A DNA stretch of 61,747 bases, counting the filler. It is 11 parts of 11 records of this genome, joined end to end, with 100 filler letters (N's around TTAATTAATTAA, not from the genome) between each part and the next. Parts side by side here need not be neighbours in the genome. Positions count along the whole stretch, not along the records: positions 25,439 to 29,355 come from SRR7504441_9863; 10 more parts are not named here. The stretch is one strand, 5' to 3'. The notes under the pieces are model-generated. The model worked only from the letters and a program-made list of their open reading frames with translations. It was not told the DNA's origin and did no database searches. Position 1 is the first letter of the stretch, and each line of letters opens with the position of its first letter. Of this stretch, positions 3,801 through 60,486 are shown one piece after another. The translations under genes were made by a program, and so were the position numbers.

Positions 3801-6223
3801 GGTGGTTTAGGTTAAGAGAAGCCAGGCGGCCGAGGCCCAGCACGAGTGGCTCCAGATGGTCCAAGCGCTCCAAGCCAAGCTCGACTCTCTCGTCCAGGCG
3901 ACCCAACCGCAGCCCGTGAGAGCTGATCCGGACTGGGTGCAGGGCTCGCAAACAGCGGCGCTTCGTAAGCTGCAGCATCTGGGCTTTCAGCAGGCCGCGG
4001 GGAGGCTTGTGCCGCTCATAGCGGTCTGGCGGAGCACAATGCGGCAATTCAAACGAGATTTGGAGATCTGGCGCGCAGCCTTTGACGACCGGTTGAGGTA
4101 ATAATGTGCTAGTTGGGCGCTCGAGCTCTCCGCAGGTCTCTCCAGTTGCTCCGGGGGACTGCAACCCGGATCTGCAAGGCAAGTGCAGGTCGCCACTGCC
4201 TTGAAAGCAGTCAGACTGACAGCAATGACTGTGCAGTCGAAGCGCTCCGCTGGTGGGCGATCAAAACAGCGATTGCAGCGCCCATTCTGGCCCAGTCCCG
4301 GAGTAACTGCAGAGTCCAAGCGATTGCAACGCGCATGCTGGACAAGTCCGTGATGAAGCGGACGAGGCGCGAGCTTATTCTGGTCTTGAACCAGTGGCAG
4401 ACGCAGCAGCAGCAGGCCGCTTTGCTTGAGACGACCAGATATGTTCAAGCGCAGCGGCGGGGGCAAGCGGTGGCTGCAACAGGCTCTGTGCTCGTCCAGT
4501 GGAGGCAGAGGCTGTGCCGGTCGTCGCTGCACCAGTGGAGAGCGGGGCTGTTCGAAGCAGCGGCCTCGACAGTGCGGCAGCAGATGGAAGGGTTGCTCGC
4601 CAGTACGCTGCTGGACACAGGCCTGGTCCGAATGCGCAGGGTGATGGCTCAGGCCATAACTTCCGAGATCAGAGGGGGCTGTGCTGCGGCGATACGCGAC
4701 TGGCGGCTGCAGGTGGCAGCTGGTGTCGGTCTGTGCTCTGAGGGCTGGGGCAGGTGCTCGATGCCGCGAGGGAGTTTCGGGTGCAGGTGCGACCCGTCTT
4801 ATATCACAAATACTTGCCCCATCATAGCTGCCTGACACGAGCACAGGTGCATATGGCGGAGGCGGCGCGGGTGCAGATGCTACAAGCCTTTCGCTATAAG
4901 AGGGCCTCCCGCCGCACCTCACTGCTGCTTCTGACTCAGCTGCTGTCGCGATCAACTCTACTGCAGGCCAAGCACGCAGTGGTCGGTTGGCGCTCCGTGC
5001 AGACCCGGGACATGGGCACGCAGCGGCATGCGCTCAAGCTTGCGGGGTCCGTGCTGGTCCAAATTGGCTCGGTCGCAGTCGGGCGCGCGTTCTGGACCTG
5101 GCACGGGGGACAGCAAGCGGCCAGCGCTCACATAACCGAGGTTTCGGTCGCGTGGCTTGCCGGAATCCGGCGGGTTCGAGCGGTGACCAACCGCAGGATC
5201 TCGCAGCAAGTCGACGCGGCGGTGCAGGTGAGTTGGGGTGCTGGGTGTGGCTAGCATTGGGTCAGGTGTGGCGGTGGGCGTGTCAACACATCAACTGGGA
5301 GAAGGAAGGTTTCCAGGTGCTTGCCGACGAGGTGCGGCCAGCCCAGGCTCCCTCGCCTCACCGGATCGGCCGGAGGTGTCGCTGATGCGTCTCAAGCTCA
5401 AAGCCAAAATGGGTCAGGACATGCGCACCGCCGGTGAGTCGCACCTGGGGCAGCACTCAGCGTTCCTAATGACAGGTCTAAGAATTGGGCGGCAAGCTCT
5501 CGCCCGCCGTCAGCGGGATGCAGTCAAGGCTGGGCTAGTGTGCTGGCGGATGAGTCAACAAGAGTGTGCCACCACCTCCAAACTCCGGCAGGAGCTCTCA
5601 GAGAAAATGCACGCGCTTCAGCAGTCACTTGGAAAGGTTGGCACTGCTTTGATCCCCCCAACAGCTGAGCCTGCTGGTCTCAGGAAGCGTTGAGGGTCAG
5701 CATCGAAGCAAGGCGCTCCGAGACTGTAAACCGTTCTCTCAAACAGGAAGTAGCTAGAGTCCAAGCGCTGGTGGTGAAATCACGACCTGAGCTGGAACCG
5801 CTTTCCGATCTCGGGAGGCGGGCGCGGATGCTCCGCCGGATTGCGCACTGGGCGATTCAAGTCAAGTGTAGGGGCGCGGTGCCAGCTTGCTGATTGGGCA
5901 TGCTGAAATTGGTCTGGTAGGTGCGGATTTGGCACATGGAGGTGCTCCTTGGGGCGATGCTCTCGGTATCTGCTGGTACTGGCCAGTGGCTCTAGCCGTG
6001 GGGGGTTTGCAGATGATGGATTACGAGATTGGGAAGAGAGAGCAGGAGGTCGTCAAGTACGCGTGGGCGGCGGAGCAGCTGGAGCGGCAGCAGAGCGGGG
6101 CGCAGGCACTGCTGTAACTGAGATGGAGGCTAACGTTGTGGGCAGCGCGAGGCGTCACAAGTGGCGGTGATGGCAAGCGATTTGAGTGCTAACCTTGATG
6201 GGATCCGGCGCGACTTTGCATAG
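821..6223 (+). CDS. Large multi-exon helical/coiled-coil protein with recurring xxxWR/WQ motifs (Sfi1-like); start and exon borders approximate
   Basis: Chain of + strand ORFs (2268, 2707, 3126, 3856, 4113, 4754, 5238, 5690) linked by short GT..AG introns. Repeated AVRAWR, RTWR, LNQWQ, VQWR, VGWR, VCWR motifs. Stop TAG at 6221-6223, then AT-rich DNA. Confidence 0.45.
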
Positions 6224-13729: not shown

Positions 13730-14056
13730 TCAGCTGATCACGCAGCAGCACCCGTCGTCCTTCTTCTTGCCCTCCTCCCTGCGCTTGGCGTCGGCCTTGA
13801 TCCTGGCTGACTTGCTCGTAGGCGTTTGCCTCGGACCGGGCAGCGACTTGCCCTCCGCCAGCGCCTGCTGCTCCCGCTCGGCGAACTCGCGCTCCTTCTC
13901 CTCGCGGGTTTCCTTGGACGGTGCCGTCCCGTCCTTGCACAGGGGCGGGTTGAGCGCTCGCTTGACGAACTTGTCCTTAATGCTGCTCTTCTTGGCCGTC
14001 TTCGGGGTCTGCTCCCCCCCGGACTCCTGCTCGGCTGCTGGCTCGGCGTCCGCCAT
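13730..14056 (-). CDS. Small charged protein with C-terminal CaaX prenylation motif
   Basis: 108 aa ending KKKDDGCCCVIS. Confidence 0.65.
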   Translation of the reverse strand: MADAEPAAEQESGGEQTPKTAKKSSIKDKFVKRALNPPLCKDGTAPSKETREEKEREFAEREQQALAEGKSLPGPRQTPTSKSARIKADAKRREEGKKKDDGCCCVIS

Positions 14057-14164
14057 CGCGCCGGCCTCAACTCAGGGCACAGGCAGTGCCCGTCCAAACA
14101 CTCGGAACGCTGCAAAAAAACAACGGCACCAGAGCCAGCAGCAGCCACAAACGTCGTCGGCATC

Positions 14165-17100
14165 ATGCGAAGAGTAGGCGTCGTCGGGACTGCATTCCTT
14201 GCGCTGGGTGTGCTGGGCTGGGCGGCGGAGCTGCTCGGGCCGCCGGTGGAGCAGCTCAACTGGACCAACTCGCATGGCGGCCCGATCGGCCATCCCGGCG
14301 ACCCCATCGAGCTAATACGCCCGGCCGCCCGCCCGCCGGCATCCAGCCCACCCTGGGCCGGCCGTACCCACCCGGCGGCCCCGGAGTTCGGGTACGCCGA
14401 GTCGGCCGGGTTCCTGCAGGCCGGGAACGACCTGGGCACGGTCAGCGTGAGCAGCGTATCCGAAGCGCTCGCCGCGTGCAGCGCGGCCATCATGTGCCGA
14501 GGGCTGACGTACCAGGGTGGACCTAACGGGACTATCAGCGGGCCGACCACCGTCTACCTCAAGAGCGGCACCGCCCGCTCCGGGGGCGCCCCCTGGGCCT
14601 CCTGGGTGAAGCAGGCCCCTGTGGGCCCGCCCAGCCAGCAGATCCAGTCAGCGGACGACAAGCTTGTGCTCGGGCTTCGGGCCGACTCGTTCACAGTCCA
14701 GTGGCTCAACCTGTCCAGCGGGGTCCCGCAGCGGGATAACTTCTCGTTCGTGCCCCCGCTCTCGCCGGGCTCAGCGCTCCCGCCTGTGCAGCACCTTGGA
14801 GATCTCAATCTCCGGGTCGGAGGCTCGGGTCAGTGGCGGTACTACAGCTCAGCCTGGGGCCCGTTCAGCGCAGCCGCCGCTCCGGTGCCGCTCCGGCCGG
14901 GCGAGTCGGCGGCGCACGACATCACGCCGCTGCTCCAGGCCACAGCCGACCAGCCGATTGGTCTGAGCGTGCGCCGCTCATACGGCCCGATGGGCGGGGC
15001 GGGTCTGGCAATGCAGTTCGAGCTCCGCAACACCGGGCCGGCGGCGGTGGAGGTGGGCGGGCTCGGGATGGCGGTCCCGGCGGCGGTGTCGCAGGACGTG
15101 CACATAGGCAGGGACCATGGGTGGGTCGAGTGGCTTCGAGTCCACGTGGACCAGCAGCTCCAGCTGGACCAAGAGTGCCTTGTGGCCACCCCTCTGCACC
15201 CGACCGGCGGCCTCGAGAACTTCCGGCCGATCTTCGAGTACGGCGGGGGCGGGTTTGAGTGGACTGTCCTCTCCAAGGCGTGGGCGGAGGAATGGGAACG
15301 GAACCAGCAGTGGCCGTACCTCTACATGAGCACAGAGCTCAACCAGACCGGTCTATGGCCCGACCCGCGCAGCCCGTGGCCGGCCTGGGGCGACGGCGGC
15401 CAGACGGTCCGGACCAGCATCGGGCCTGCCTCCCACTGGAATCCGCCCAGTTCCTGGGTCCTTGAGCCCGACCAGACCGAGATGTTTGGAATGCGGCTGT
15501 CGGGCTGCTCCGGGGGCCCGAGGACCCGCGACCAGGCGCTAGCGGCGGCCGGGGAGCCGGTGCTCCGGGCGGTGCCGGGGTACACGCTGAGCACGGCCAT
15601 GCGCTCGGCGGAGCTGTTTGTGACGTTGCCTGCCGGGCTCACTGTGACTACTGCCGTCTCGTTCCCGCCTGAGGTGCTCTCGATTGGACCGCTGAGCACC
15701 CGAGCCGGCGTGGCGGTGGTGCCGGTGGTCGGGTCGGCAGCCGGCCGGGCCAGGCTGGAGGTCAAGTTGAGTGACGGCACGGTGGCTGTGGCGCATTATC
15801 TCGTGCTGCCGCCTCTCGAGCAGCAAGTCTCGCTGGTGGCTCACCACTGGGCTGAGGTGGCCTGGCTGCCCAGGGAATTCAATGACCCTTTCGGCCGATC
15901 GGCCTCGGTGATGCCCTGGGATCGCGAGGACAAGCGGCACAGGCTGAACGACGGCAGAGCATACGGTACAAGCTGCACAAAGCCGGTGCTGAGCTGGGCT
16001 GTGCAGATGTCGGCCTGAGCGACGACGCTGGGGCGGCCAACCCGCTAGGGTTCGCGACTAGTCAGGCGTTCGCCCCGGAGCAGTCGACTGTGGCCCGGCT
16101 CGATGAGTACATAAGCAGCACGCTGTACGGCGTCAAGCCGGACACAGCGCACTGGCCGCTCAAGAGTCTGCAGCTTCCGGAGCCGAACAATGGGGTGCGG
16201 ATGACGCTCTTTTATTACAACCAGACCCACTTTCCGTACAACTATACCGAGCAGGCGGAGTGCGGGGTGGTGGCCGGGCTCAACTACAACTGGTGCATGA
16301 CCGAGGCCCAGGCCAACGCCACCTACCGTGGGTTCAACTACCCGCATCAGATCGCCACCTACTACGCCATGTGAGCCGGCCCGGTCTGCTGGCTGCTGAG
16401 CTGTGGGCAGGTATCGGGTCGCTCGGTGCTCTCTCGCTGGCCACCTGCGCCTGTGCTGAGCGGGCTGGCAGGAACCACCCGAGGATCAACGTGACCCAGA
16501 GCTGGGCCTGGTACCTCCAGCGGGCGGCCAACACAACCATCCGGCTCGGCTTTGCCAGGATCGGGTACATGGACGGCACCGTCACCCGTGAGGTTCTCCG
16601 CTCAGTGCTCGAAGAGGCGCAGGCCGATCCATCGTCGATCTGGACTTCGCTCGGCGCCAGGATCCTCGCCGGCGAGAGGGCGCGAGCCGAGTATTTCAGG
16701 ACGGCGCCCAACCCGTACGGGTCCGAGTTCTCGTACGACACCACGGGGCAGGAAGAGGTTGTGGTCTGGCTGCTTTATTTCGACTACGACGACGATGCGG
16801 CCCGGACTGTGAACCATATCCTACAGTACATGCGGAACTTGCCCAACTGGGCGTACAACGGCGGCGCCATCGCCACCGACGTGGCCAACGGCGGCAAGTG
16901 GTTGGTCTCGGCCGGGACGGGCCGGGGCGACTATGGCAAGATGCACTACCGGGCGGGGCTCAATCAGATCCCGTTGATCGAGTGGTACAGGCGGCACCCA
17001 GACGACCGGCAGACCCTCGAGATCGCTGTGGGCGCCATGAGCGGTCAGTTGTCTAATATCGACCAGACAGGGGCGCCGTCGATCTACTTCCACGCGTTTC

Positions 17101-17591
17101 CGCACGTGATGGAGCACGACGCGTACTCGGGCGACTATGGGCTAGGGTTCTTTGGGTCTTCGCTCGAGGCATCCGCCACGCTGGTGGTTGACCGGCAGCT
17201 CGGGCCGCTCTGCTACCTATGCGACTTAGCCGCCAGCAACCAAACCGGGGTTTACACGCTGATGCCGCGCGACGCGTACCACCAACGGGTGTATCTGGAG
17301 CCTCTTGGGCTTTTCGTGCAGGCCGACGCCGGGATTATCCAGTCAGTCTCACTCGATATGCCCCGATCAAGGATCACAGTCATCTTCGGGCCGCCTGATG
17401 CAACCCCGGCCCGGACCCGGAGCTACGACCTGCTGCGGCTGCGGGTGGACAAAGTGTCGTTGCCCGACGCAAAGAGGCCGGGCACTAATTTCTCGGTTGT
17501 GGCGCCGGGGGGTGTGACCAAGTCGCGGTCTGCGTTTGAGATACCTGGCTCTGACTCGGCTGTCTCGGTGAGCATTGCGTTCGATCAGTAA
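14165..17591 (+). CDS. Secreted DUF5695-like putative glycoside hydrolase (spliced)
   Basis: Signal peptide MRRVGVVGTAFLALG. Motifs HLGDLNLRV, DPFGRSASVMPWDRE, GLSDDAG, RGFNYPH, PYGSEFSYDTTGQEE, YSGDYGLGFFG across ORFs 13826, 16090 and 16260. Confidence 0.7.
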
Positions 17592-25338: not shown

Positions 25339-25438
25339 NNNNNNNNNNNNNNNNNNNNNNNNNNNNNNNNNNNNNNNNNNNNTTAATTAATTAANNNNNN
25401 NNNNNNNNNNNNNNNNNNNNNNNNNNNNNNNNNNNNNN
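25339..25438. other. Artificial contig spacer
   Basis: N-run + TTAATTAATTAA. Confidence 0.98.
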
Positions 25439-25629
25439 TAAAAGTTTAAGGTGAGTTATAACTCTATAACTTAGCAATATTGGAAGACCCCATAATTTGC
25501 CGTCCCGGCGCCGACAACCCCGACAAGCTCCAGCGCTGTAGGGCGTCCAGCGGCACCTGACGTGGGTCGGATCGTGTCAGAGGCAGTGTAGAGCGTGGCG
25601 GCCTGCCAGAGCTGATTGGGGCTGAGGCC

Positions 25630-28600
25630 ATGAAACTGTGGGTTCGGTACGGCGGGCTGCAGCCGACCAAGGTGCTCGTGGAGCCGGACGAGGACGTGGA
25701 CGCAGTCAAGGAGGCCGTGATTGCCAAGCTCGGGCTGACTCAGCTTGCAGCCGGCCTGCTCCTCCGGGCGGCCGACGGCCGGTCTCTCGACCCGATGCTC
25801 AGCCTGGCCGAGCAGCAGGTGCCGGAGGGCGCCCAGTGCACTCTCGAGCCCATCCAGCAGCCTGCCCCGCCCGAGGCTGGCGGATCGCCCGCACGGCCAC
25901 TCTCGCTAGCGGTCTTTTTCAGCGCGCCGCTGGTGGGCTGGAGCAAGCAAATGCCGGAGACCCCGCTAAGCCTTCTGGACTACAGAACCGAGCGCGAGCT
26001 GCTCATCGACTCGTTTGCGCACGCTGGCAAGGAGATCAGCCTGAGCTTCCACTTCGCGACCTCCAAAATGCTGCAACGGGCCCTGATGGAGGGCGCGACT
26101 GCACTGCACTACTCGGGCCACGGGAACAGCTCAGCCCTTGCGTTTGAGGACGGGAAGGGCTCGGTGCACATGCTCAACGTGCAGCAGCTGCGAGGCCTGT
26201 TCGAGAAGACTAAGGAGGGCGGGCGGCGTAAGGTACAGTTTGTGTTTGTGTCGGCGTGCTACTCGCTCGAGATCGGCCGGGCCTTTGTGGCAGCCGGGGT
26301 GCCTAGCGTGGTGGCCTGCAGCATGGACGACCGAGTTTCCGACACCGGAGCCCGCACGTTCGAGGATGCATTCTACGTCTCGCTGGCCCAAGGCGATACA
26401 GTGCTCAGGGCCTTCGAGATGGGCCAGCAGGCGGTCTCGACCTCCACATCGGCTGTGGCCCGTGAGGACACCAACAAGTTCTTCCTCCTCCCCGAGGTGA
26501 CCCCCCATCCCCCCTTCTGGGCCTACCCAGCCGGTGGCAGAATGCTGAGCATCTGCACTCGCGGTCGGTGTTTGGCAGCGCTAGGCTGCTTGACTGCAAG
26601 TGGTCGCTCTGGGAGGGATATCCTACTATTGGCTCAATTCCGCCTCCCATCGAGGGATTCCAGGGCCGCAACCTCGAACTGTTCACCGTGCTAGATCACT
26701 TGCACCGTGGCCGGTTTGTATCTGTAGTGGGAGGGCGCGGGATCGGCAAGCGAGCGCTGGTCACGGCGCTGGCCAATTACTGCTCTGAGCGGGAGCAATT
26801 CAGAGAAGGAGTGCTCTGGCTGGCAGCCAGCGGGATGCATAGCGTAGCGGAAGTGCATCAAGCGATAGCGCAGGCGGCCGGACGGGAGCCCGAGCTGCCT
26901 CCCGAGGGGCTTTTGGCCGGACTGCAGATACTGCTTGTTCTTGAAAGCTGCGATGGTCTGCATGCCTCGGCACGAAGCCAGTTTGGGAGGTTCCTCGAGG
27001 GCTTGATGCAGGAGCAGCAGCTCTCGATCGTGACCACAGCCTGCGAGCCGATCGGAATCCTTACTGACGTTGTCGAGAAGGTGCTGCTGCTAGACAAACT
27101 CTCTCCGGCAGATCAGGCAATCATGTTCAGTCGGAGAGCCCCTCGAAGGATTAGACCACAGGAAGTCGGGTGCAGCAGCCCGGCGCAGCTGTCTTCGTGG
27201 CTGAGTAACAACGCCAAGCTGATTCAGATGACCCCACGAGAGGTGGTACAAGCCACACGAGAGCTAGTCCAGAAGCCGCTCAGCCAAGTGCTCGGCCTGG
27301 CCAGTAGCAGTGTGCCCACCCACCCAACCGAGCTGCTAGAAGTGCGAAGATTCTACGAGGCCGAGTTGCCCACTGTAGGCGAGATTGTGGTAGTTGAAGT
27401 AACCTCGGTGACTGAGCTTGGGGTGTTTGGCAAGCTGCTTGAGTATGGGAACGCCTCGGGTGGTCACCACCGGCTGGCCGGGCCGATCCAGGGCAGGGAT
27501 CATTCTGCAGAAAGAAGTCAGCCGGCGACGGATGGATGAGGCAACGCATTTCAGAGTGGGCAAGAAGGAGTACGGCCCTATTGCTCCCCGCCAGTGCATA
27601 ACTGACTGATAGTTGGGTATAGTGGATTTTTTAAAATTTCGCGGCTACGCCGCTACGCTTGACGACGACTGTCAGGTATGTTCGTGTGATCAAGGTAGAC
27701 ACGAGATCCAACACAGTGGACCTGAGCAAGAGAAAGGTGCTGGCTGGCTGACTGGCTGTGGCAAATGGGGGGGCAGGTTAATCCAGCAGAGCGGGAGCAC
27801 GCCAAGCAGCAGTACCACAAGGGCCTGACAGTGCGCAGGATAGTTGAGATGGTTGGGTCGCAGTGCGGTATATCGGTGGCTGAGCTGTTTGAGCGAGCTG
27901 TCTGGCCTCTGCACCGAGCGCACGGGCATGCATACGATGCGTTCAAGCAGGAACTGTCGGATAGGGACAGTGTGCTCAGCGAACTCTCACTCCCGTTGTC
28001 GGTGCACGATGCGCTGTACGAGGCGATTCTAGTCGAGATGAGCCAAGCCCTTTCCAAGGTGGCACTCAGCACGCAGAGTCGAGTGCTCGATCTGTCGGCT
28101 TGGGGTCTCAAAGCACTGCCCCAGTGCTTTCTCGAGCTGCATGCACTGCGCACTTTGAACCTCGAATCGAATAAGCTGGTACGCCCTGCTTGCCAGCCCA
28201 AGCTGATTTGGGCCAAGGTCGGGCTGCCGACGAGCATTGGTAGCCTTAGCTTGCTGGAGGAGATCAACCTCAACAACAACAAACTCGAGGGCCTGCCTCA
28301 TACCCTGCCGGAACTGCGCAGTCTGCATCGGCTCTACCTGCACAGTGCTGTTCAAGGTTGTCATAAGGACGCAATTTCGATCATTCTGCGGTCAGCGCTC
28401 AGCTGCAGTGCCTGGTAGACGCTTGATGTGTGCTGGTGCAGCATGCCAGCGCTAGTCGAGCTCAACCTCTCTAACAATCAGCTTTTCGAGGACTCGGATC
28501 CCGAACCTGGTACGCAGCTGACTGCTGAGGTGGCTGACCATGGGCCAGGTCTACTGCCTCCCGAATTTGGGGCGTCACTTATGGCACTGGAGTCGCTTGG

Positions 28601-29199
28601 GATCAGTGGCAACTGCATAGAGACTCTGGAGCATTGTGGGTTTGAGCGGCTGGGCCGGCTCACGTTTCTGGACTTGAGTAGCAACCGAATCTCACAGGTA
28701 GAGTGCTGGTGGGCGATGGCGAGTGAATGGCAGGTGCCAGAGCTCTCGATGCTTCACCGGCTGAGCACGCTCAATATCAAGTCCAACACAATCATGGAGC
28801 TGCCGCCAGTGGACAGCTGGACCAGCCTGGAATCCTTGGTGTGCTCTTACAATCGTTTGGTTAGCCTGCCAACCCTGGCCCCGCTGTCTAGACTACAATA
28901 CCTCGACCTCAGTCACAATCTGCTTAGCATTCTTCCGAAGGTCGGACCGGGTTTGCCCCTGGACTGAGGGCTTCTGCTGACAGAATATTGGGCAATGCTC
29001 GTCTTTGACCGATTTGGTTCTTTCGGACAATCAACTGGAATCTCTTCCACTAGAGCTGGCCAACATTGCATCTCTCGAGCGGTGCTTGGTAAATGGGAAT
29101 CCGCTAGTGGCAGTTCCCTTAGAACTAGGTAAGATCATCAACGTTGATCGGGATTCGCTGACTGAGCTTAGCAAACAACTGAGTGCGACATTGTTTTAA
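25630..29199 (+). CDS. NLR-like protein: ubiquitin-like + CHAT protease + NB-ARC/STAND NTPase + integrated eIF2-alpha domains 1-2 + LRR
   Basis: LHYSGHG and VFVSACYS (CHAT His/Cys), GGRGIGKR and LLVLESCD (Walker A/B-like), RFYEAELP..LLEYGN..EVSRRR..VDLSKRKV..AYDAFK (eIF2-alpha), LxxLxLxxN repeats. Introns 26497-26540, 27460-27496, 27570-27675, 27737-27776, 28179-28217; later LRR introns not fully resolved. Confidence 0.85.
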
Positions 29200-29355
29200 G
29201 ATGACTAAAACTCAGTTGTGATATAATTAATTAAGCTATTATTAAGCTATCACAGGGTCGACAAGAAGGCGGCGACAAGGGCGCGCTTCATTGACAGAGG
29301 AGCGGGCAGTGCTTTAATCTAGTGTAGCTCTGAAACTGTCAGACGTATTAAATGA

Positions 29356-29643: not shown

Positions 29644-32600
29644 TTATTGCTCAGCATATGACTCCATGCACAGTCCGAACACCTGTGTGATGCATGGGTG
29701 ACTTTCTATGCGCTTTCAGGGAAGCCACCTTAATGCCGTTTGTGTAGCTGGCTCCGGGTACCTTCTCGCTGTCACCAAGCAAGTCGTCGGGACCTCCAAT
29801 CTGCACCGAATCATGTCACTCTGTAGCCACATGAGCTGCTAGACCGGAATGATGCACACTTCCTTGCCAGTCATTTCTTTCAGAATCACAGCAGCCGGAA
29901 TGGTGCCACCTGAGACCACACCAGCGTGAGTTGGGCTGGCTCAGAGACAAAGCGTCTCTAGATACAAGTGTACCTTCCCTGATCGCGTCCGGCCCCTCAC
30001 CATAAACTTCCGTAATGGCTGCACCAGCTGCCGCATAGATGGGCGCTGCCCTGTCGGCCATGAGAGGTGACACTGCAGCACACCAACATGCGTCATAATG
30101 ACCAGTGGCTCGAAGGCACCTTGCTGATCACAGACCACGTCTAGTGTGTTTGCGCTACCAAGCCCAGCAAACGCCTCTTCCAGGCACTTCTTGACACTTG
30201 CTTCAACAGCGCCGTGGTCAGATCCATGTGGGGTCCGGACGCCAAACGTGAAAGTCACACAGTTGGGCATCATGTAGGCGCACACATGCGAAACGGGCCC
30301 TGGAGTCGTCGAGCTTTCCACAGAAAGCAATGACAGAGAAGGATCCAGCCATCGGCTCTTCAAGAGCGCGCTCTGGTTATCAGCAGCAGCCTTTGCGATG
30401 CCAAGCTGTTTGCAGTATGTGTCGATGTCAAAAGCAACCTTCTCCGCATTTGCCACCTCAGCGGGATCAGTTTCAACCTGGAGCTCAGCAGTCAAGCTGC
30501 CTGTCGTCAGAGCACTCATGAGTGCAGCCGCCTCAGTCATGGCCTCGTGGACAGTGCCGCCAAATGAGCCAGAGTTCAGGTTCTGGCTACCTGCACTGAC
30601 TTTGACTGTAAAGTGCATCACTCCACGGAGTGCGTATGTCACACATGGCTTTTGGGCAGTCAGCCAGCTGCCGTCTGAAATGCAGATGGAGTCCACATCA
30701 CTCACAAATTCCTTGACCTTGCTCCCTGATGCAAGTGCACTGGAGCACGCACAGCCGGTGGTGTCGATCACAAGCTTGAGGTTCACAGGGAAAGCCTTGC
30801 CGAGCTTGACATACGCATCAGCAGTGCACATCCATGCCACAATCGGCCCCTTTGCATCTGAAGTGCCACATCCAAAGAGGTCTCCGCCTGCCTTTGTCAG
30901 GATGTAATCCCCACCCTCCTCAGTGTCCAGGTGCCCGTATACACACAGAGTCTTGGTTGCGGCGTCTGTCTCTGGGGCACGGAAGCACACTCCAATCAGA
31001 CCGTCATCTAGACTCACGACCTCGATCGGAGTGTCTGAAGAGCTCTGAAGCTTTGTGGCTTGGTCCTTAACAAGCCCAAGCGCACTGCTCTCGTTAGAGC
31101 CAGTCTTGGTCTCGAGCTTGACGTAATCTGCCAGCACCTTGACGTAGTCATCCTGGTGCTCATCCACATACTCGAGGAACTGCCGCTTGGGGTCGCTAAA
31201 CGAGAAAGTCACCTCCGCTGTGCACTGGCCTCCGGAGTTGCTCAGCACCACTGTGCTTGTGCTTTCGGTGTTGTACAGATCCATATTTCCCACCACGCCC
31301 ACGATCTTGCCATCCTCAGCCAGGGAGAGCCCCTCAGGCAACGATTCGCACGTGAAGGTGCCCTTGCCCTCGAACGTGGGTTCAAACTCGACTTGCGAGG
31401 CCATCAGGATGTTGAGCTTGTTACCGTTCGGATATTCGAGCCCGGACGGTGGCACTTCAAGCACGGCAACCGCGAGCTCTGTGCTCACTGAGCCGCCTGT
31501 GTTGGTCGCCGTCACTGTGTGAGTAGATTCGCCCACAGCAGACGAGTCTGGCACTCCAGTCACACTGCCAGTCGCACTGTCGAAGCTCAGCCCGCTGGGC
31601 AGTGCTGGTTCGATGCTGAAAGTCACTGGGGTTGCTGGCTCCACAGTCGGAGCACCGCCACCCTCCTCGATCCCAACCTCCGCAATGGCCTTGATCGCAC
31701 CCTCATAGCTGATGCTAGTGGGCGGTGCATCGACGATGATGATATCGACTTTGCATGTCTGCTCGCCACCGCTGTTGGCCAGCTTCAATGTAGTGGTGGC
31801 CTTCTCGACCGGGGCCACTGGTGTGCCTGAGATCACCCCAGTGGCAGGGTCGAGCGTGATGCCCTCTGGAAGCGGATTGGCCGAAGTCTCACTGAACGCG
31901 CTGAACACTCCCAAGCAGCCCTCTGGGGCCACCATGGGCTTGGTAGAGAACTCTTCGCCCACTGTCAGGCTGAGAGTCTCGCAAAGCAAACTAGTGGGCG
32001 GCGCATGCACCACTTGCACTGAGATCTCCGTCGACACCTCCCCGCCAGAATTCCACGCACTCACTGTGTGTTTGGTGCTCTTCGGCTCAAGAATCTCGTC
32101 GTAGCTCTCGGCGGTGCCGCTGATCAGTCCAGTCTCGGGGTCGAAAGTAAGGCCAGGGTGCAGCTCCGGCTCGATTTTGAGCGTGACCTTGGTATCAGCC
32201 GGCGCGACGGTCGGGGCGACTGAAGTGCCATCGGCGCCGACAGTGAAAACGGCACTCTCGGCCTCAAATGTGATGCTGGTCGGGGGCACCTCTTGCACCA
32301 TGATGTTGACAACACACTCAATGAACCCGGCACTGTTCTCGCAAGTGACAGTGAAGTCTGTTGCAGGGCAGCAGCCCTCGTTAGTTGGGCAGCCGCTGAT
32401 CGCGCCAGTCTCATCGTCCAGTGTCATCCCGGCCGGCAGTTCCGGCTCACAGTCGAAGGTCAGGTTCTCGACCCCATCAGGCGTGATTGTAGGCAGCATA
32501 ACCTCGAGCTGCTGCCCTGGCGCAAACACCCACGGAGTGCCAGCATACTCCATGGTCTCCGGCTCCACGTCAAAGCACTCGTTGTCGAACGCGTCCTTCA

Positions 32601-33870
32601 CGTTCTTGAGGTAGAGCACCAGCGACACCTGGCCCAGGCACTCAGCCCGAGCCTCTCCAGCTGCGGCCGACCTCGTCGAGCGCCCCACTAACCACGTCCT
32701 GAGCGTCAATCAGCTGCTCGACCTCGTACTCCTTTTCCAAGAAATCAAACGCTGCTTGGCACGCAGCGAGCGGGTCGCTCTGCCCGCTGACTGAGCCCGC
32801 GCTTGGCCGGGCACTCACCCCTCGCAGGCTGTCAATGTCGAAAGAGCCCTCGCGCTGGCTCTCGACCAGGGCTTCGAACGGGACGCCCGGCATCACACCC
32901 GGGGTCGGGTCGACGATGTCGATCTCGTACCCGAACTTCTTGATCCGTTTGTTGAACCATTTGAGGATCAGCTTGGACGAGCGAGGCAGGTCATACCTGG
33001 CTCCGGGGCTCAGCCTGGGCCAGAAGGCGCACAGTCACGTTGTGATCAGCCGCCAGATGAACGAGATGACCAGCTTGACCCGGCCATCCAGGAAATCTTT
33101 GGCGATAATCCCCTGGTGCGGGATCTTCAGCTTGTCGATCGCCTGCGCCGGGTCAGGCCCGTGCCGGCCAGCTAGCGTCAGTGATGGGCTGGATGCCTTG
33201 AAACAGATGTTCAGATTGTCCAGCCAAAGCGCCGTGTACCGCGCATTGTTCTTCACTCGCACCTTGAGCCCAGGCTCCAGCGTTTCGAGCACCTGACCCA
33301 CGCCTGATCGGCCGGGGCCGCCCGGATCCGCACCCGCGCCAGAGTGATCCCGGTCTTGAGCGACTCGATCAGATCCTCGACCGGCTCGAGCCCTGCTCCC
33401 ACGGCTCCCATCAGACCGGCGCCCGGCCGGCGGGGGCAGCGCACCGGCCTTTTTGAGCTTCATGTTGCACCACTTGGTACACACCCTGAGCGACACGTCG
33501 ACTGGCCCGCCGAGTGAGCCCGCGGCCAGCCGGCGGACGCACGGTCGGTGCCCGAAGTTCCGACGCTCCGCATCACCTGCCCCGCGCTGTCGGTCACCAC
33601 CCGCGCGACGCCCGAGCGACAGCGGCGCCGGCCGGGTTGGGCAGGTGAAACAGGCTCGCCAGCCTGGGGAGGTGGGGGGCGGGCAGGCCGGGCCGGTGGG
33701 CGGGCGGGCAGCGGACCGTAAAGTTGTCGGTCTTCATGATCTCGCCATCCACGGGCTTGAAACGCGACACCTGCCTCGCCCGTGACCCCACAGCCGAGAC
33801 AGCAAGCAGGCGGGCGGCTGTCGATAGCAGCGGCACACAAGCCGGAACGGCCGGGGGCGGGAGGCACCAT
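29644..33870 (-). CDS. Tandem calponin-homology domains + about 5 He_PIG-type Ig repeats + degenerate M20 (CNDP2-like) dipeptidase
   Basis: TKWCNMKL..DLIESLKTGITL..FIWRLI and LKWFN..AFDFLEKEYEVEQLIDAQD (CH1/CH2). LPxGL(S/T)xDxxTGxISGxP repeats. CVYGHLD, GTSDAKGP, PVNLK, ISD, YALRG, REGGTIP (CNDP2-like). Confidence 0.8.
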
Positions 33871-59136: not shown

Positions 59137-60393
59137 TTACTTTTTCTTTTTCTTGTCTTTCTTGCCGGATTTGCCAATCTTGACACCTTGCCATCGGCAA
59201 TGGGGCAGCGATGCGAATTGTTTGTCTAACGCCAGATCTGGGCTGCACTCACGGATGTCCACCTGGCTCAGTGACCGGTTCTCGGCCATGCCCTTGGGCA
59301 GCGTCTCCAGCAGCGGATTAAAAGCGACCTGGAACTCCTTGAGATTCCTGAAGGCCCCAAAGGTCATCGGCACCGCCTTGAGATCGTTATGCGACAGATA
59401 CAGCTCCTCCAGCCCCTCCCAGCACGCCATCCGTGGCGGGACCGACCGCAGCCTGTTGTTGGCTGCCGAAAACTTTCTCATCTGCTTCAAGTCGCCAAAC
59501 TCGGGCGGAAGCGTCGTGAACTGGTTCTTGTGCAGAAACAGCTCCTCCAGCTGGGTCAGCTGGGCCATTAGTGCGAGCGGCTCCACGTCGTCCCGTTTGT
59601 TAATTAAATTATTCTGCCCGAGGTAGAGGAACTTGAGGCTCTGTAGCTGGGCAAACTCTGGCGGGAGGCTCTTGATGCAGTTGTCGTTCAGGTTGAGCTC
59701 CTCGAGTAGCACCAGATTCCCGATCTCGGCCGGCAGCTCGTTGATTCCGTTGCAGGCCAAGTTGATGTGCTTGCACGCCCTCCAGCTGCCTATGCTCGCA
59801 GGTACCATGATCAGCTTGTTGGCCCGGGCGTCCATGTGCTCCATCATGGCCCACTGGGCGTCCGGCAGCGCCACGATCTCGTTGTGCATCAGCTTGAGTT
59901 CGCGCAGCAGGTGGCATTCGGCAAGCGAGTCCGGGAAGTTGCTCACGCCGTTCCGCGAAAAGTCGATAAATTTGAGCAGTTTGAGCTGTCCAACGGTGGG
60001 CGGCAGGCCCGAGAGCAGGTTGCGCTGCAGGTACAGCTCCTCCAGCTTGGTGAGGTTGCCCAGTCGGTCGTCGAGCCCCGCGAGCTGGTTGCGTGACAGG
60101 TCCAGCTTCTGGAGAGTGGCGCAGCTGTAGATCGACTCCGGGAGCCCGGTCAGGTTGTTCACGGCCAGGTCTATCCACTCGCACTCGGGCAGACTCCCGA
60201 TCTCCTCTGGGAGCTCGTTCAGCCGCTTGTCCCGCAGGGAGAGGTGGGTCTTGCCCTTCTCGGCGGTCCTCTCCAGTTTGAGCTGGATCTTCTCGTTCTT
60301 CATCTTGTCCAGCTGCCCGCGCACCTCGTCCGCGTACGCCTCCATCTCCGGGGTCATCGGCTCCACCTTGGCCGGCTTGCCCTTCTTCCCCAT
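59137..60393 (-). CDS. Leucine-rich repeat protein (SHOC2/LRRC-like), intronless
   Basis: Continuous 23-aa LPxEIGxLxxLxxLxLxxN repeats with basic termini. Confidence 0.85.
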   Translation of the reverse strand: MGKKGKPAKVEPMTPEMEAYADEVRGQLDKMKNEKIQLKLERTAEKGKTHLSLRDKRLNELPEEIGSLPECEWIDLAVNNLTGLPESIYSCATLQKLDLSRNQLAGLDDRLGNLTKLEELYLQRNLLSGLPPTVGQLKLLKFIDFSRNGVSNFPDSLAECHLLRELKLMHNEIVALPDAQWAMMEHMDARANKLIMVPASIGSWRACKHINLACNGINELPAEIGNLVLLEELNLNDNCIKSLPPEFAQLQSLKFLYLGQNNLINKRDDVEPLALMAQLTQLEELFLHKNQFTTLPPEFGDLKQMRKFSAANNRLRSVPPRMACWEGLEELYLSHNDLKAVPMTFGAFRNLKEFQVAFNPLLETLPKGMAENRSLSQVDIRECSPDLALDKQFASLPHCRWQGVKIGKSGKKDKKKKK

Positions 60394-60486
60394 CCCCCTT
60401 CCTACTTGTACTTACCGGCGCCCACCTCTGCTACAACTCCATTTTTGGCGCGTTGTCCGTTGCGTGTGCTCGCCGGACGGGTGGTC

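Follow-up and report, generated by a model that had tools for sequence, protein, structure and literature searches.

An eIF2-alpha-derived domain between a STAND-like NTPase and leucine-rich repeats in a predicted CHAT protease receptor gene of a marine eukaryote

Introduction

Why would a receptor-like protein contain half of a translation initiation factor? The question is raised by a gene at positions 25630-29199 of the DNA analyzed here, a stretch of 61,747 nucleotides, filler included (hereafter the window), in which 11 short contigs are concatenated. All 10 junctions are N44-TTAATTAATTAA-N44 spacers (e.g., 25339-25438), and GC content per kb ranges from ∼0.41 to 0.71 across the contigs. 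Because the contigs were joined through spacers, genes adjacent in the window are no evidence of linkage. The gene is real and expressed, and it belongs to the nuclear genome of an uncultured marine eukaryote. The predicted product combines, in order, a possible ubiquitin-like (Ubl) segment, a CHAT caspase-like protease, a P-loop NTPase resembling the signal transduction ATPases with numerous domains (STAND), the N-terminal half of eIF2-alpha (S1 and helical domains) and ∼11 leucine-rich repeats (LRRs). An earlier note on this DNA had proposed the same five-part architecture, that of a nucleotide-binding leucine-rich repeat (NLR)-like receptor with an eIF2-alpha decoy; the analysis judges this architecture real, with the Ubl component itself only weakly indicated.

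Little is known of virus detection by marine protists, though viral lysis shapes plankton populations. Viral targeting of eIF2-alpha is established knowledge, and plant NLRs with integrated domains are familiar, such as RGA5 and Pik-1 with HMA and RRS1 with WRKY. NLRs with integrated domains and CHAT effectors are already known kinds; the new features are the identity of the insert, its position between NTPase and LRRs, and the lineage. The note knew of no described protein built in this way, and our literature searches, which did not cover supplements, found no paper linking an eIF2-alpha domain to an NLR.

Results

Gene structure and the NTPase-eIF2-alpha-LRR fusion

The gene is alone on its contig, as delimited by the spacers and the gene model. 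This model was built by joining + strand frames through GT-AG introns and yields a product without internal stop. Its main features are:

25439-29355, no strand assigned: contig SRR7504441_9863 (3917 bases, GC 0.58; bounded by N spacers up to 25438 and from 29356)
25630-29199, + strand: gene (ATG at 25630, stop TAA at 29197-29199, ten exons, 1052 residues)
25630-26496, 26541-27459, 27497-27569, 27676-27736 and 27777-28178, + strand: exons 1 to 5
28218-28414, 28442-28509, 28549-28697, 28734-28940 and 28984-29199, + strand: exons 6 to 10
25630-25869, + strand: N-terminal 80 residues, possible ubiquitin-like fold (unproven; weak PDB sequence matches)
25948-26496, + strand: CHAT caspase-like protease domain (Pfam CHAT, E-values 1.4e-11 and 8.1e-11)
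26661-27171, + strand: divergent STAND-like P-loop NTPase (sub-cut-off profiles and atlas neighbors)
27172-27347, + strand: helical linker from NTPase to eIF2-alpha-like domain, within one exon (continuous frame 26466-27539; collinear with P0002)
27348-27459, 27497-27569 and 27676-27736, + strand: eIF2-alpha-like S1 domain (collinear PDB matches, P0002 alignment)
27777-28061, + strand: eIF2-alpha-like helical domain, ending in a family-specific stretch that replaces the linker to the C-terminal domain
28086-29130, + strand: ∼11 LRRs in exons 5 to 10 (Pfam LRR_8/LRR_4, motif count, collinear with P0148)

The fusion of NTPase, eIF2-alpha-like insert and LRRs is real. Both joins lie inside uninterrupted, stop-to-stop frames of the + strand: the NTPase frame (26466-27539) continues into the eIF2-alpha-like start, and frame 27726-28418 starts eIF2-alpha-like and finishes in LRRs. 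The fusion is therefore independent of splice calls, as had been claimed. On the same strand, the CHAT frame spans 25561-26694 and additional LRR frames reach 29199. An RNA contig from a polyA metatranscriptome (X1 record 1, 27167-27419) matches without differences from the linker into the S1 domain.

An independent sequence displays the same order of domains. P0002, the open reading frame (ORF) of a Trinity transcript from another eukaryote (EukProt), holds the P-loop NTPase, the linker, the S1 and helical domains and the first LRR residues in one ORF. It is 54% identical to the window gene over 270 residues of the NTPase exon and 61% identical over the eIF2-alpha part, and it is collinear on four consecutive exons, with breaks at 27459/27497, 27569/27676 and 27736/27777; by this collinear tblastn, the borders of exons 2 to 5 agree with the transcript. 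The exon model and the P0002 alignment on these four exons give the same spliced peptide that had been read earlier from the letters alone. The database annotation of P0002 consists of its two Pfam domains only. Its C-terminal ∼28 residues, which we take to be adapter-derived, are common, at up to 100% identity, to many unrelated Trinity ORFs and spoil word-based searches.

The other side of the insert is covered by a metagenome contig (L002/P0148) that runs from the last part of S1 through the helical domain and a complete LRR array to a stop; its C-terminal tail parallels that of the 1052-residue product. P0001 also displays the helical-to-LRR join. Within L002 1-100, a splice acceptor (…ctgtcag|) lies at most 1 nt from the acceptor of the 106-nt intron of the window gene, at the same S1 codon. 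This common intron position speaks for a single ancestral gene that was already fused, and against repeated accidental joining. The window gene has six further introns downstream, all of which L002 lacks. The RNA contig, P0002 and L002/P0148 together rule against misassembly or separate transcripts, a danger named in the earlier note, for the NTPase-eIF2-alpha-LRR part; the CHAT join is predicted.

The eIF2-alpha-like insert

The spliced insert corresponds to residues 559-735 of the product. It is ∼35% identical to canonical eIF2-alpha, and its alignment to that protein starts at the N-terminal RFYE motif and continues without large gaps until the helical domain ends (∼residue 175). Two separate exons are collinear on solved eIF2-alpha chains: exon 27336-27459 matches residues 6-40 (E-value 3e-5; 1.4e-6 to one chain), and exon 27777-28178 matches residues 95-157 (E-value 9e-7). 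The latter exon also passes the Pfam EIF_2_alpha cut-off (29 bits vs. 22.8), and the S1 profile passes on the relative P0002 (31.2 bits vs. 22). In an AlphaFold2 (AF2) model of P0002, the insert has a predicted local distance difference test score (pLDDT) of ∼95 and superposes on the N-terminal domain (NTD) of yeast eIF2-alpha (1q46; TMt 0.91, root-mean-square deviation 1.5 Å, 170 columns), a fold match not independent of sequence similarity, as canonical eIF2-alpha rows were contained in the alignment. By the Pfam and PDB matches, the central segment is a true eIF2-alpha N-terminal half and not a generic S1 domain, as the note had proposed for its S1 and helical stretch.

The likeness stops at the helical domain. 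The Pfam EIF_2_alpha profile is covered at positions 2 to 53 of 114 only, the LRRs come directly after, and the C-terminal alpha/beta eIF2-gamma-binding domain is absent from the insert. Because this domain is absent, the insert is not usable as an eIF2 subunit; the docking motif is changed too. The concern that the gene might be a real translation subunit is thereby removed.

The equivalent of Ser51 is Ser604 (27520-27522). This serine and the next two arginines are kept in both family members that cover the site (the window gene and P0002), and acidic or neutral residues then replace the canonical basic and hydrophobic run. The KGYID motif, whose equivalent lies at 27707-27721, reads SNTVD in the window gene, SKTVD in P0002 and P0003, AATVD in P0007 and TGHMD in P0148; its tyrosine is gone in 5/5 members covering it. 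The equivalents of Ile59 and Ile63 are altered as well. In the part of 10.1101/501411 consulted, KGYID is described as an important eIF2 kinase interface that also contacts eIF2B-alpha and uS11, and Ile59 and Ile63 as contacts of eIF2B-delta. With these residues changed, canonical eIF2B binding or kinase docking by the insert appears unlikely. The option that the receptor reads Ser51 phosphorylation, entertained earlier, is accordingly weakened: the serine is kept in 2/2 sequences but the KGYID element is lost.

Relatives of the fused gene

A tree of N-terminal halves separates the fused-type sequences from the canonical family. All six lie on one side of a long branch, opposite 38 canonical N-terminal halves, with Shimodaira-Hasegawa-like approximate likelihood ratio test support of 89 for all six and 98 for five of them (stem lengths 0.39 and 0.78). 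P0003 and P0007 are counted as ‘fused-type’ by clustering alone, as neither reaches a join. The tree left out matches not spanning query positions 10-149, the near-duplicates P0147, P0004 and P0012, and the repeat protein P0135. Reading frames are intact in all six fused-type sequences. By its sequence, the insert is a diverged paralogous eIF2-alpha copy kept by selection. Ten metagenome loci were found with the family alignment, and six of them were examined: L002 is fused, and L001 and L003 to L006 encode canonical eIF2-alpha, C-terminal domain included.

The family is patchy and diverges fast, with few relatives among 1.8 billion representatives and 35-61% mutual identity. Word-index searches, which are weak evidence here, gave no long relative of the NTPase-S1 exon among proteins of 537-2000 residues and none of P0002 residues 232-428 among proteins of 796-2270 residues. 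When whole P0002 was searched near its own length, only P0002 itself covered more than 28% of the query among the 120 matches listed, and the rows of high identity covered ∼4-8%, as expected if they have just the adapter-like C-terminal tail in common with it. The prokaryote genome contigs searched held no relative. The viral contigs searched held one locus, L011, with a canonical-looking eIF2-alpha NTD and no fused form.

L011 merits a remark of its own. At 3920-4435 of this contig, which belongs to a giant-virus metagenome-assembled genome, a 171-residue ORF encodes an eIF2-alpha N-terminal half with an SRRRIRS stretch and KGFID; the frame closes before the helical domain is complete. The ORF could represent an eIF2-alpha homolog of the virus, or a host gene with an intron that was binned with the virus.

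CHAT protease, NTPase and LRRs

The chassis around the insert is supported by an intact CHAT His/Cys pair, an NTPase nearest to NB-ARC/nSTAND1 clusters, and LRRs, as judged from sequence comparisons. The CHAT domain scores 42.3-44.8 bits against the Pfam cut-off of 24 (PF12770). Its catalytic residues are His164 (26119-26121, GHG context) and Cys210 (26257-26259, SAC context), contexts that we take to be the CHAT catalytic motif consensus. An intact CHAT dyad with His at 26119 and Cys at 26257 had been called from the letters, and the codons are found at those places. Protein atlas neighbors of the CHAT part are CHAT clusters, at a score of only 0.84; a PDB sequence search with this part returned no match at E≤1, and PADLOC gave no match for the CHAT exon or the NTPase exon of the window. 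P0002 gives one weak PADLOC mad8 match.

The N-terminal 80 residues have no Pfam match. Against PDB, the top three of 13 rows are a redesigned ubiquitin (E-value 0.012) and two ubiquitin-like chains (0.12-0.17), and a single-sequence AF2 model of exon 1 is unusable (mean pLDDT 41.6). The Ubl placed at ∼25630-25850 by the earlier note is thus not confirmed as such; a Ubl fold is weakly indicated, as a possibility.

The NTPase has a Walker A motif, GGRGIGKR (26730-26753), and a Walker B-like motif, LLVLES (26931-26948). The consensus forms are GxxxxGK[ST] and hhhhD[DE]. In both the window gene (Lys359) and P0002 (residues 18-25), the Walker A lysine is followed by arginine, not serine or threonine. 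The Walker B-like motif has a glutamate. The layout of P-loop, hhhhE, TT-containing strand and helical stretch resembles, in our assessment, that of STAND NTPases. Pfam scores stay below the respective cut-offs for AAA_16 (25 vs. 32.6 bits), nSTAND1 (18.1 vs. 27.1), NB-ARC (16.4 vs. 23.5) and NACHT (13.5 vs. 26.7), and a PDB sequence search with the NTPase part gave nothing significant. In an atlas feature search, which provides a lead and not an alignment, the named clusters among the rows listed are mostly NB-ARC, nSTAND1 and NACHT (0.93-0.98), the NB-ARC and nSTAND1 clusters being neighbors at 0.96-0.98. Of the P-loop NTPase called earlier, the STAND-like character is thus borne out by weak profiles and atlas neighbors, but no curated threshold is reached. 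Only ∼60 helical residues separate the NTPase core from the insert. In the AF2 model of P0002, the region after the NTPase core has a pLDDT of 32-73, and the NTPase part is of low confidence.

The LRRs reach 63-66 bits with Pfam LRR_8/LRR_4 (cut-off 27). Elsewhere in the window, 59137-60411 (- strand) encodes a stand-alone 424-residue LRR protein with a lysine-rich C-terminus and neither NTPase nor CHAT. It is ∼30% identical to the LRR part of the gene, a generic LRR similarity, and is the only paralog-like match in the window.

Introns and RNA support

The nine introns measure, in order, 44, 37, 106, 40, 39, 27, 39, 36 and 43 nt:

26497-26540, + strand: 44 nt, GT-AG, predicted, from CHAT exon to NTPase exon
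27460-27496, + strand: 37 nt, missing from the P0002 transcript, retained in DNA (X2 record 9, 27404-27602)
27570-27675, + strand: 106 nt, missing from the P0002 transcript; L002 acceptor at most 1 nt from the same codon position
27737-27776, + strand: 40 nt, spliced in RNA (X10 record 5), missing from P0002
28179-28217, + strand: 39 nt, in-frame, predicted from a P0148 alignment gap; removal restores the LRR consensus
28415-28441, + strand: 27 nt, in-frame, predicted; removes TAG at 28416-28418; the least certain border, outside RNA cover
28510-28548, + strand: 39 nt, spliced in RNA (X1 record 2)
28698-28733, + strand: 36 nt, in-frame, predicted from a P0148 alignment gap
28941-28983, + strand: 43 nt, GT..AG, spliced in RNA of two studies, retained in DNA

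Support was sought in four runs: one seawater sample provided two RNA runs, and a marine cDNA run and a seawater DNA run made up the rest, with X1 a polyA metatranscriptome, X10 a cDNA metatranscriptome from another study and X2 a DNA run. Nine of the ten contig records from these runs are 99+% identical to the gene, so a near-identical organism was present in those marine samples and was transcribing the gene; the tenth (X10 record 4, 36 letters with 5 differences) was set aside. The nine spliceosomal-type introns and the polyA-selected RNA contigs indicate that the gene is eukaryotic and nuclear.

Three introns are spliced out in metatranscriptome contigs of two studies. Ahead of its start at 27775, X10 record 5 has 15 loose letters that equal 27720-27734, and X1 record 2, which starts at 28548, has 16 that equal 28493-28508. 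The loose letters match the upstream exon ends; introns 27737-27776 and 28510-28548 were therefore removed in the RNA. For 28941-28983, the joint 28938→28982 (cut +2) is seen in both X1 (side 88) and X10 (side 30), and a DNA contig (X2 record 10, 28795-28997) runs gapless over the intron. The reading of one spliced gene filling the contig is borne out by the spacer limits, the ten-exon model and these RNA-confirmed introns. Positions 25439-25831, 26094-26617, 27011-27141 and 27928-28451 are uncovered in the four runs, which says nothing of transcription there, and no single RNA contig among their records spans the whole gene.

The remaining borders are of unequal standing. The three in-frame LRR introns rest solely on P0148 alignment gaps or TAG removal. 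The 44-nt intron between the CHAT and NTPase exons is one among 11 GT..AG joins that restore the frame, and neither RNA of the four runs nor homologs support it, P0002 starting just before the P-loop. A join between CHAT and NTPase is still required, because the NTPase frame has no methionine upstream of the P-loop and overlaps the CHAT frame. An alternative intron in the LRR region (28357-28395) was dropped, as the P0148 alignment is better with that stretch retained.

The introns as a group are very small: eight of nine measure 27-44 nt and one 106 nt, all are GT-AG, and most start with GTG or GTA and end with CAG. Such tiny GT-AG introns may help to place the organism.

Discussion

A candidate receptor with a proposed eIF2-alpha sensor or bait

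The reading that we put forward, tentatively and at a little less than an even chance, is that the gene encodes an NLR-type switch whose integrated domain, derived from eIF2-alpha, serves as sensor or bait and drives a CHAT protease, the trigger being a pathogen factor that seeks eIF2-alpha. In such a protein, CHAT would be the executing part and the STAND-like NTPase the switch, with the LRRs at the C-terminus and the eIF2-alpha copy between NTPase and LRRs. The insert would act as a built-in sensor or bait presenting the eIF2-alpha surface around the Ser51 loop, and its ligand would most plausibly be a factor of a virus or another parasite that manipulates translational shut-off. Binding or modification of the insert would release autoinhibition by the LRRs or the NTPase, the receptor protein would then oligomerize, and the clustered CHAT domains would kill or arrest the cell through cleavage of a downstream substrate. 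We infer the immune role, the contact between bait and effector and the activation of the protease by analogy with plant integrated-domain NLRs and fungal CHAT-NLRs.

Several observations are consistent with this bait-carrying switch. NTPase, insert and LRRs stand on one polypeptide, as evidenced by the frames, the RNA contig and P0002, with the effector-to-NTPase join predicted only. The insert is homologous to eIF2-alpha, a host protein targeted by viruses, and the titles of the PDB entries include a DP71L complex. Poxvirus K3L is listed among the viral eIF2-alpha mimics in the part of 10.1101/501411 consulted. Among possible triggers, a pathogen factor would rank first and a host-kinase phospho-switch lower, because KGYID is lost.

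Other observations weigh against it. The arginine after the Walker A lysine may mean that nucleotide hydrolysis is impaired, altered or lost, and the NTPase lies below every curated Pfam threshold. The CHAT-to-NTPase join depends on a predicted 44-nt intron, one of 11 options. Canonical rows in the AF2 alignment reduce the independence of the fold match, and the word-index protein searches found no full-length relative. The best-known partner surfaces, KGYID and the residues after Ser51, are those that have changed, and a drifted bait would be a poorer mimic. The wider proposition is somewhat less probable still: that protist NLR-type receptors, independently of plants, integrated an eIF2-alpha half to detect viral (e.g., giant-virus) factors that seize or dephosphorylate eIF2-alpha, and answer with CHAT, killing or arresting the cell.

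Alternative explanations

Three other functions can be imagined for the same domains, and the changed residues of the insert bear on each. The gene might encode a stress-coupled death switch, in which the insert is a pseudo-substrate of host eIF2-alpha kinases and phosphorylation of Ser604 upon infection or stress activates NTPase and CHAT. The serine with its two arginines is kept in both members covering the site, and the whole S1-plus-helical unit that kinases recognize is present; against this, the kinase interface KGYID (10.1101/501411, part consulted) is replaced, with its tyrosine gone in all five members, the basic stretch after the serine is now acidic or neutral, and retention of a serine in only two sequences is weak evidence, so that we consider this switch unlikely. 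An RNA- or ribosome-directed sensor, whose S1-plus-helical unit contacts mRNA, initiator tRNA or the 40S subunit and monitors viral RNA or initiation complexes, would draw on the RNA-binding nature of the S1 fold, the profile of which passes on P0002, and on the contacts of the eIF2-alpha NTD with Met-tRNAi, mRNA and ribosomal proteins in initiation complexes (10.1101/501411, part consulted). The loss of KGYID, which contacts uS11 in the initiation complex according to the same part of that paper, and of the C-terminal domain, which leaves no tie to eIF2-gamma or tRNA delivery, makes this sensor improbable as well.

Nothing in the data ties the gene to infection, and it might instead be a non-immune regulator, a protease scaffold with a housekeeping or developmental task, whose eIF2-alpha-like part would bring in translation regulators such as eIF2B or a phosphatase as substrates or partners of CHAT. 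CHAT and STAND proteins do occur outside immunity. Conversely, the effector-NTPase-LRR build is typical of plant and animal immune or death switches, and the family is patchy and fast-diverging. A comparable build is found in the fungal switches described in the part of PMC12881547 consulted, and the residues that contact eIF2B-alpha and eIF2B-delta (the KGYID tyrosine, Ile59 and Ile63; 10.1101/501411, part consulted) are changed; a non-immune role seems quite unlikely. Finally, the architecture could be an artifact, either an assembly chimera of an NLR-like gene and a host eIF2-alpha or two to three adjacent genes read as one. The contig is short and the assembly fragmented, no single RNA contig spans the gene, and the CHAT-to-NTPase join is predicted only. 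However, the same joins recur in an independent transcript, from a different organism, and in a second metagenome contig, an RNA contig crosses from linker to S1, and independent DNA contigs match at 99+%. At ∼35% identity to canonical eIF2-alpha, and clustering with the fused copies, the insert is not a host eIF2-alpha pasted in, and the NTPase frame lacks a start codon upstream of the P-loop. An artifact is therefore very improbable. It is largely refuted for the NTPase-eIF2-alpha-LRR part, and the two-gene reading that is left concerns only CHAT versus the rest.

Comparison with known systems

Like the plant integrated-domain NLRs, the window gene joins an NTPase-LRR receptor to an extra domain that diverged from a pathogen-targeted host protein. 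Unlike them, it comes from a marine protist, has CHAT instead of a coiled-coil or TIR domain, and has an NTPase below the NB-ARC threshold; its insert, a putative bait, is half of a translation initiation factor placed between NTPase and LRRs. The part of PMC12881547 consulted describes fungal NLRs with an N-terminal CHAT domain, as well as a TPR-bearing CHAT protease, not itself an NLR, that activates a gasdermin. The predicted product of the window gene shares with these CHAT-NLRs the N-terminal CHAT signaling module, and the expected output would likewise be proteolytic activation of a death executor. Unlike the window gene, the fungal CHAT-NLRs in that part of the paper use WD40, TPR or ANK repeats and have no eIF2-alpha insert. 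In contrast to the fungal systems, no gasdermin or other substrate gene is visible, the window gene being alone on its contig.

Viral mimics offer another comparison. Ranavirus vIF2-alpha is a viral eIF2-alpha mimic, and poxvirus K3L is not known to carry the phospho-acceptor serine. The insert resembles K3L and vIF2-alpha in being an eIF2-alpha N-terminal part without the eIF2-gamma-binding domain; the viral proteins are free-standing stand-ins in host-virus conflict. K3L keeps KGYID, according to the part of 10.1101/501411 consulted. The insert is the opposite of K3L in that it keeps the serine and loses KGYID, and it is host-encoded and built into a receptor. Compared with canonical eIF2-alpha (PF00575 and PF07541), the insert has collinear S1 and helical domains, and P0002 has a predicted fold within 1.5 Å of the yeast NTD, but the insert has no C-terminal alpha/beta domain and changed docking motifs, is embedded in a 1052-residue protein and belongs to a separate clade.

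Mammalian NLRP1 and CARD8 act as ‘tripwires’ through a disordered protease-target linker and FIIND autoprocessing. In common with them, the window gene would encode a receptor that holds its own decoy substrate for pathogen enzymes, the sensing parts not being homologous.

If the bait-carrying switch is confirmed, the integrated-decoy strategy would also have arisen outside plants, and this would be the first such receptor beyond plants whose decoy derives from a translation factor. Manipulation of eIF2-alpha would then be indicated as a virulence strategy of protist viruses, and the gene would provide a molecular handle on virus sensing by unicellular plankton. It would also offer a defined protein with clear mutants (Cys210, Ser604 and the Walker A lysine) through which translational control could be tied to programmed cell death in unicellular eukaryotes. 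Should the insert prove to be an RNA or ribosome sensor or a pseudo-substrate of kinases, a STAND receptor that has taken up a eukaryotic translation factor domain would still add a new building block to this receptor class.

Other genes in the window

Two further loci, on other contigs of the window, are recorded here. A 922-residue open frame at 29941-32709 (- strand) contains several He_PIG Ig-like repeats (E-value 5e-34) and a peptidase M20 domain. Two consecutive frames at 13811-16018 and 16107-17591 (+ strand) match DUF5695 (profile positions 223-397 and 507-810); an intron or a frameshift probably divides what is a single gene.

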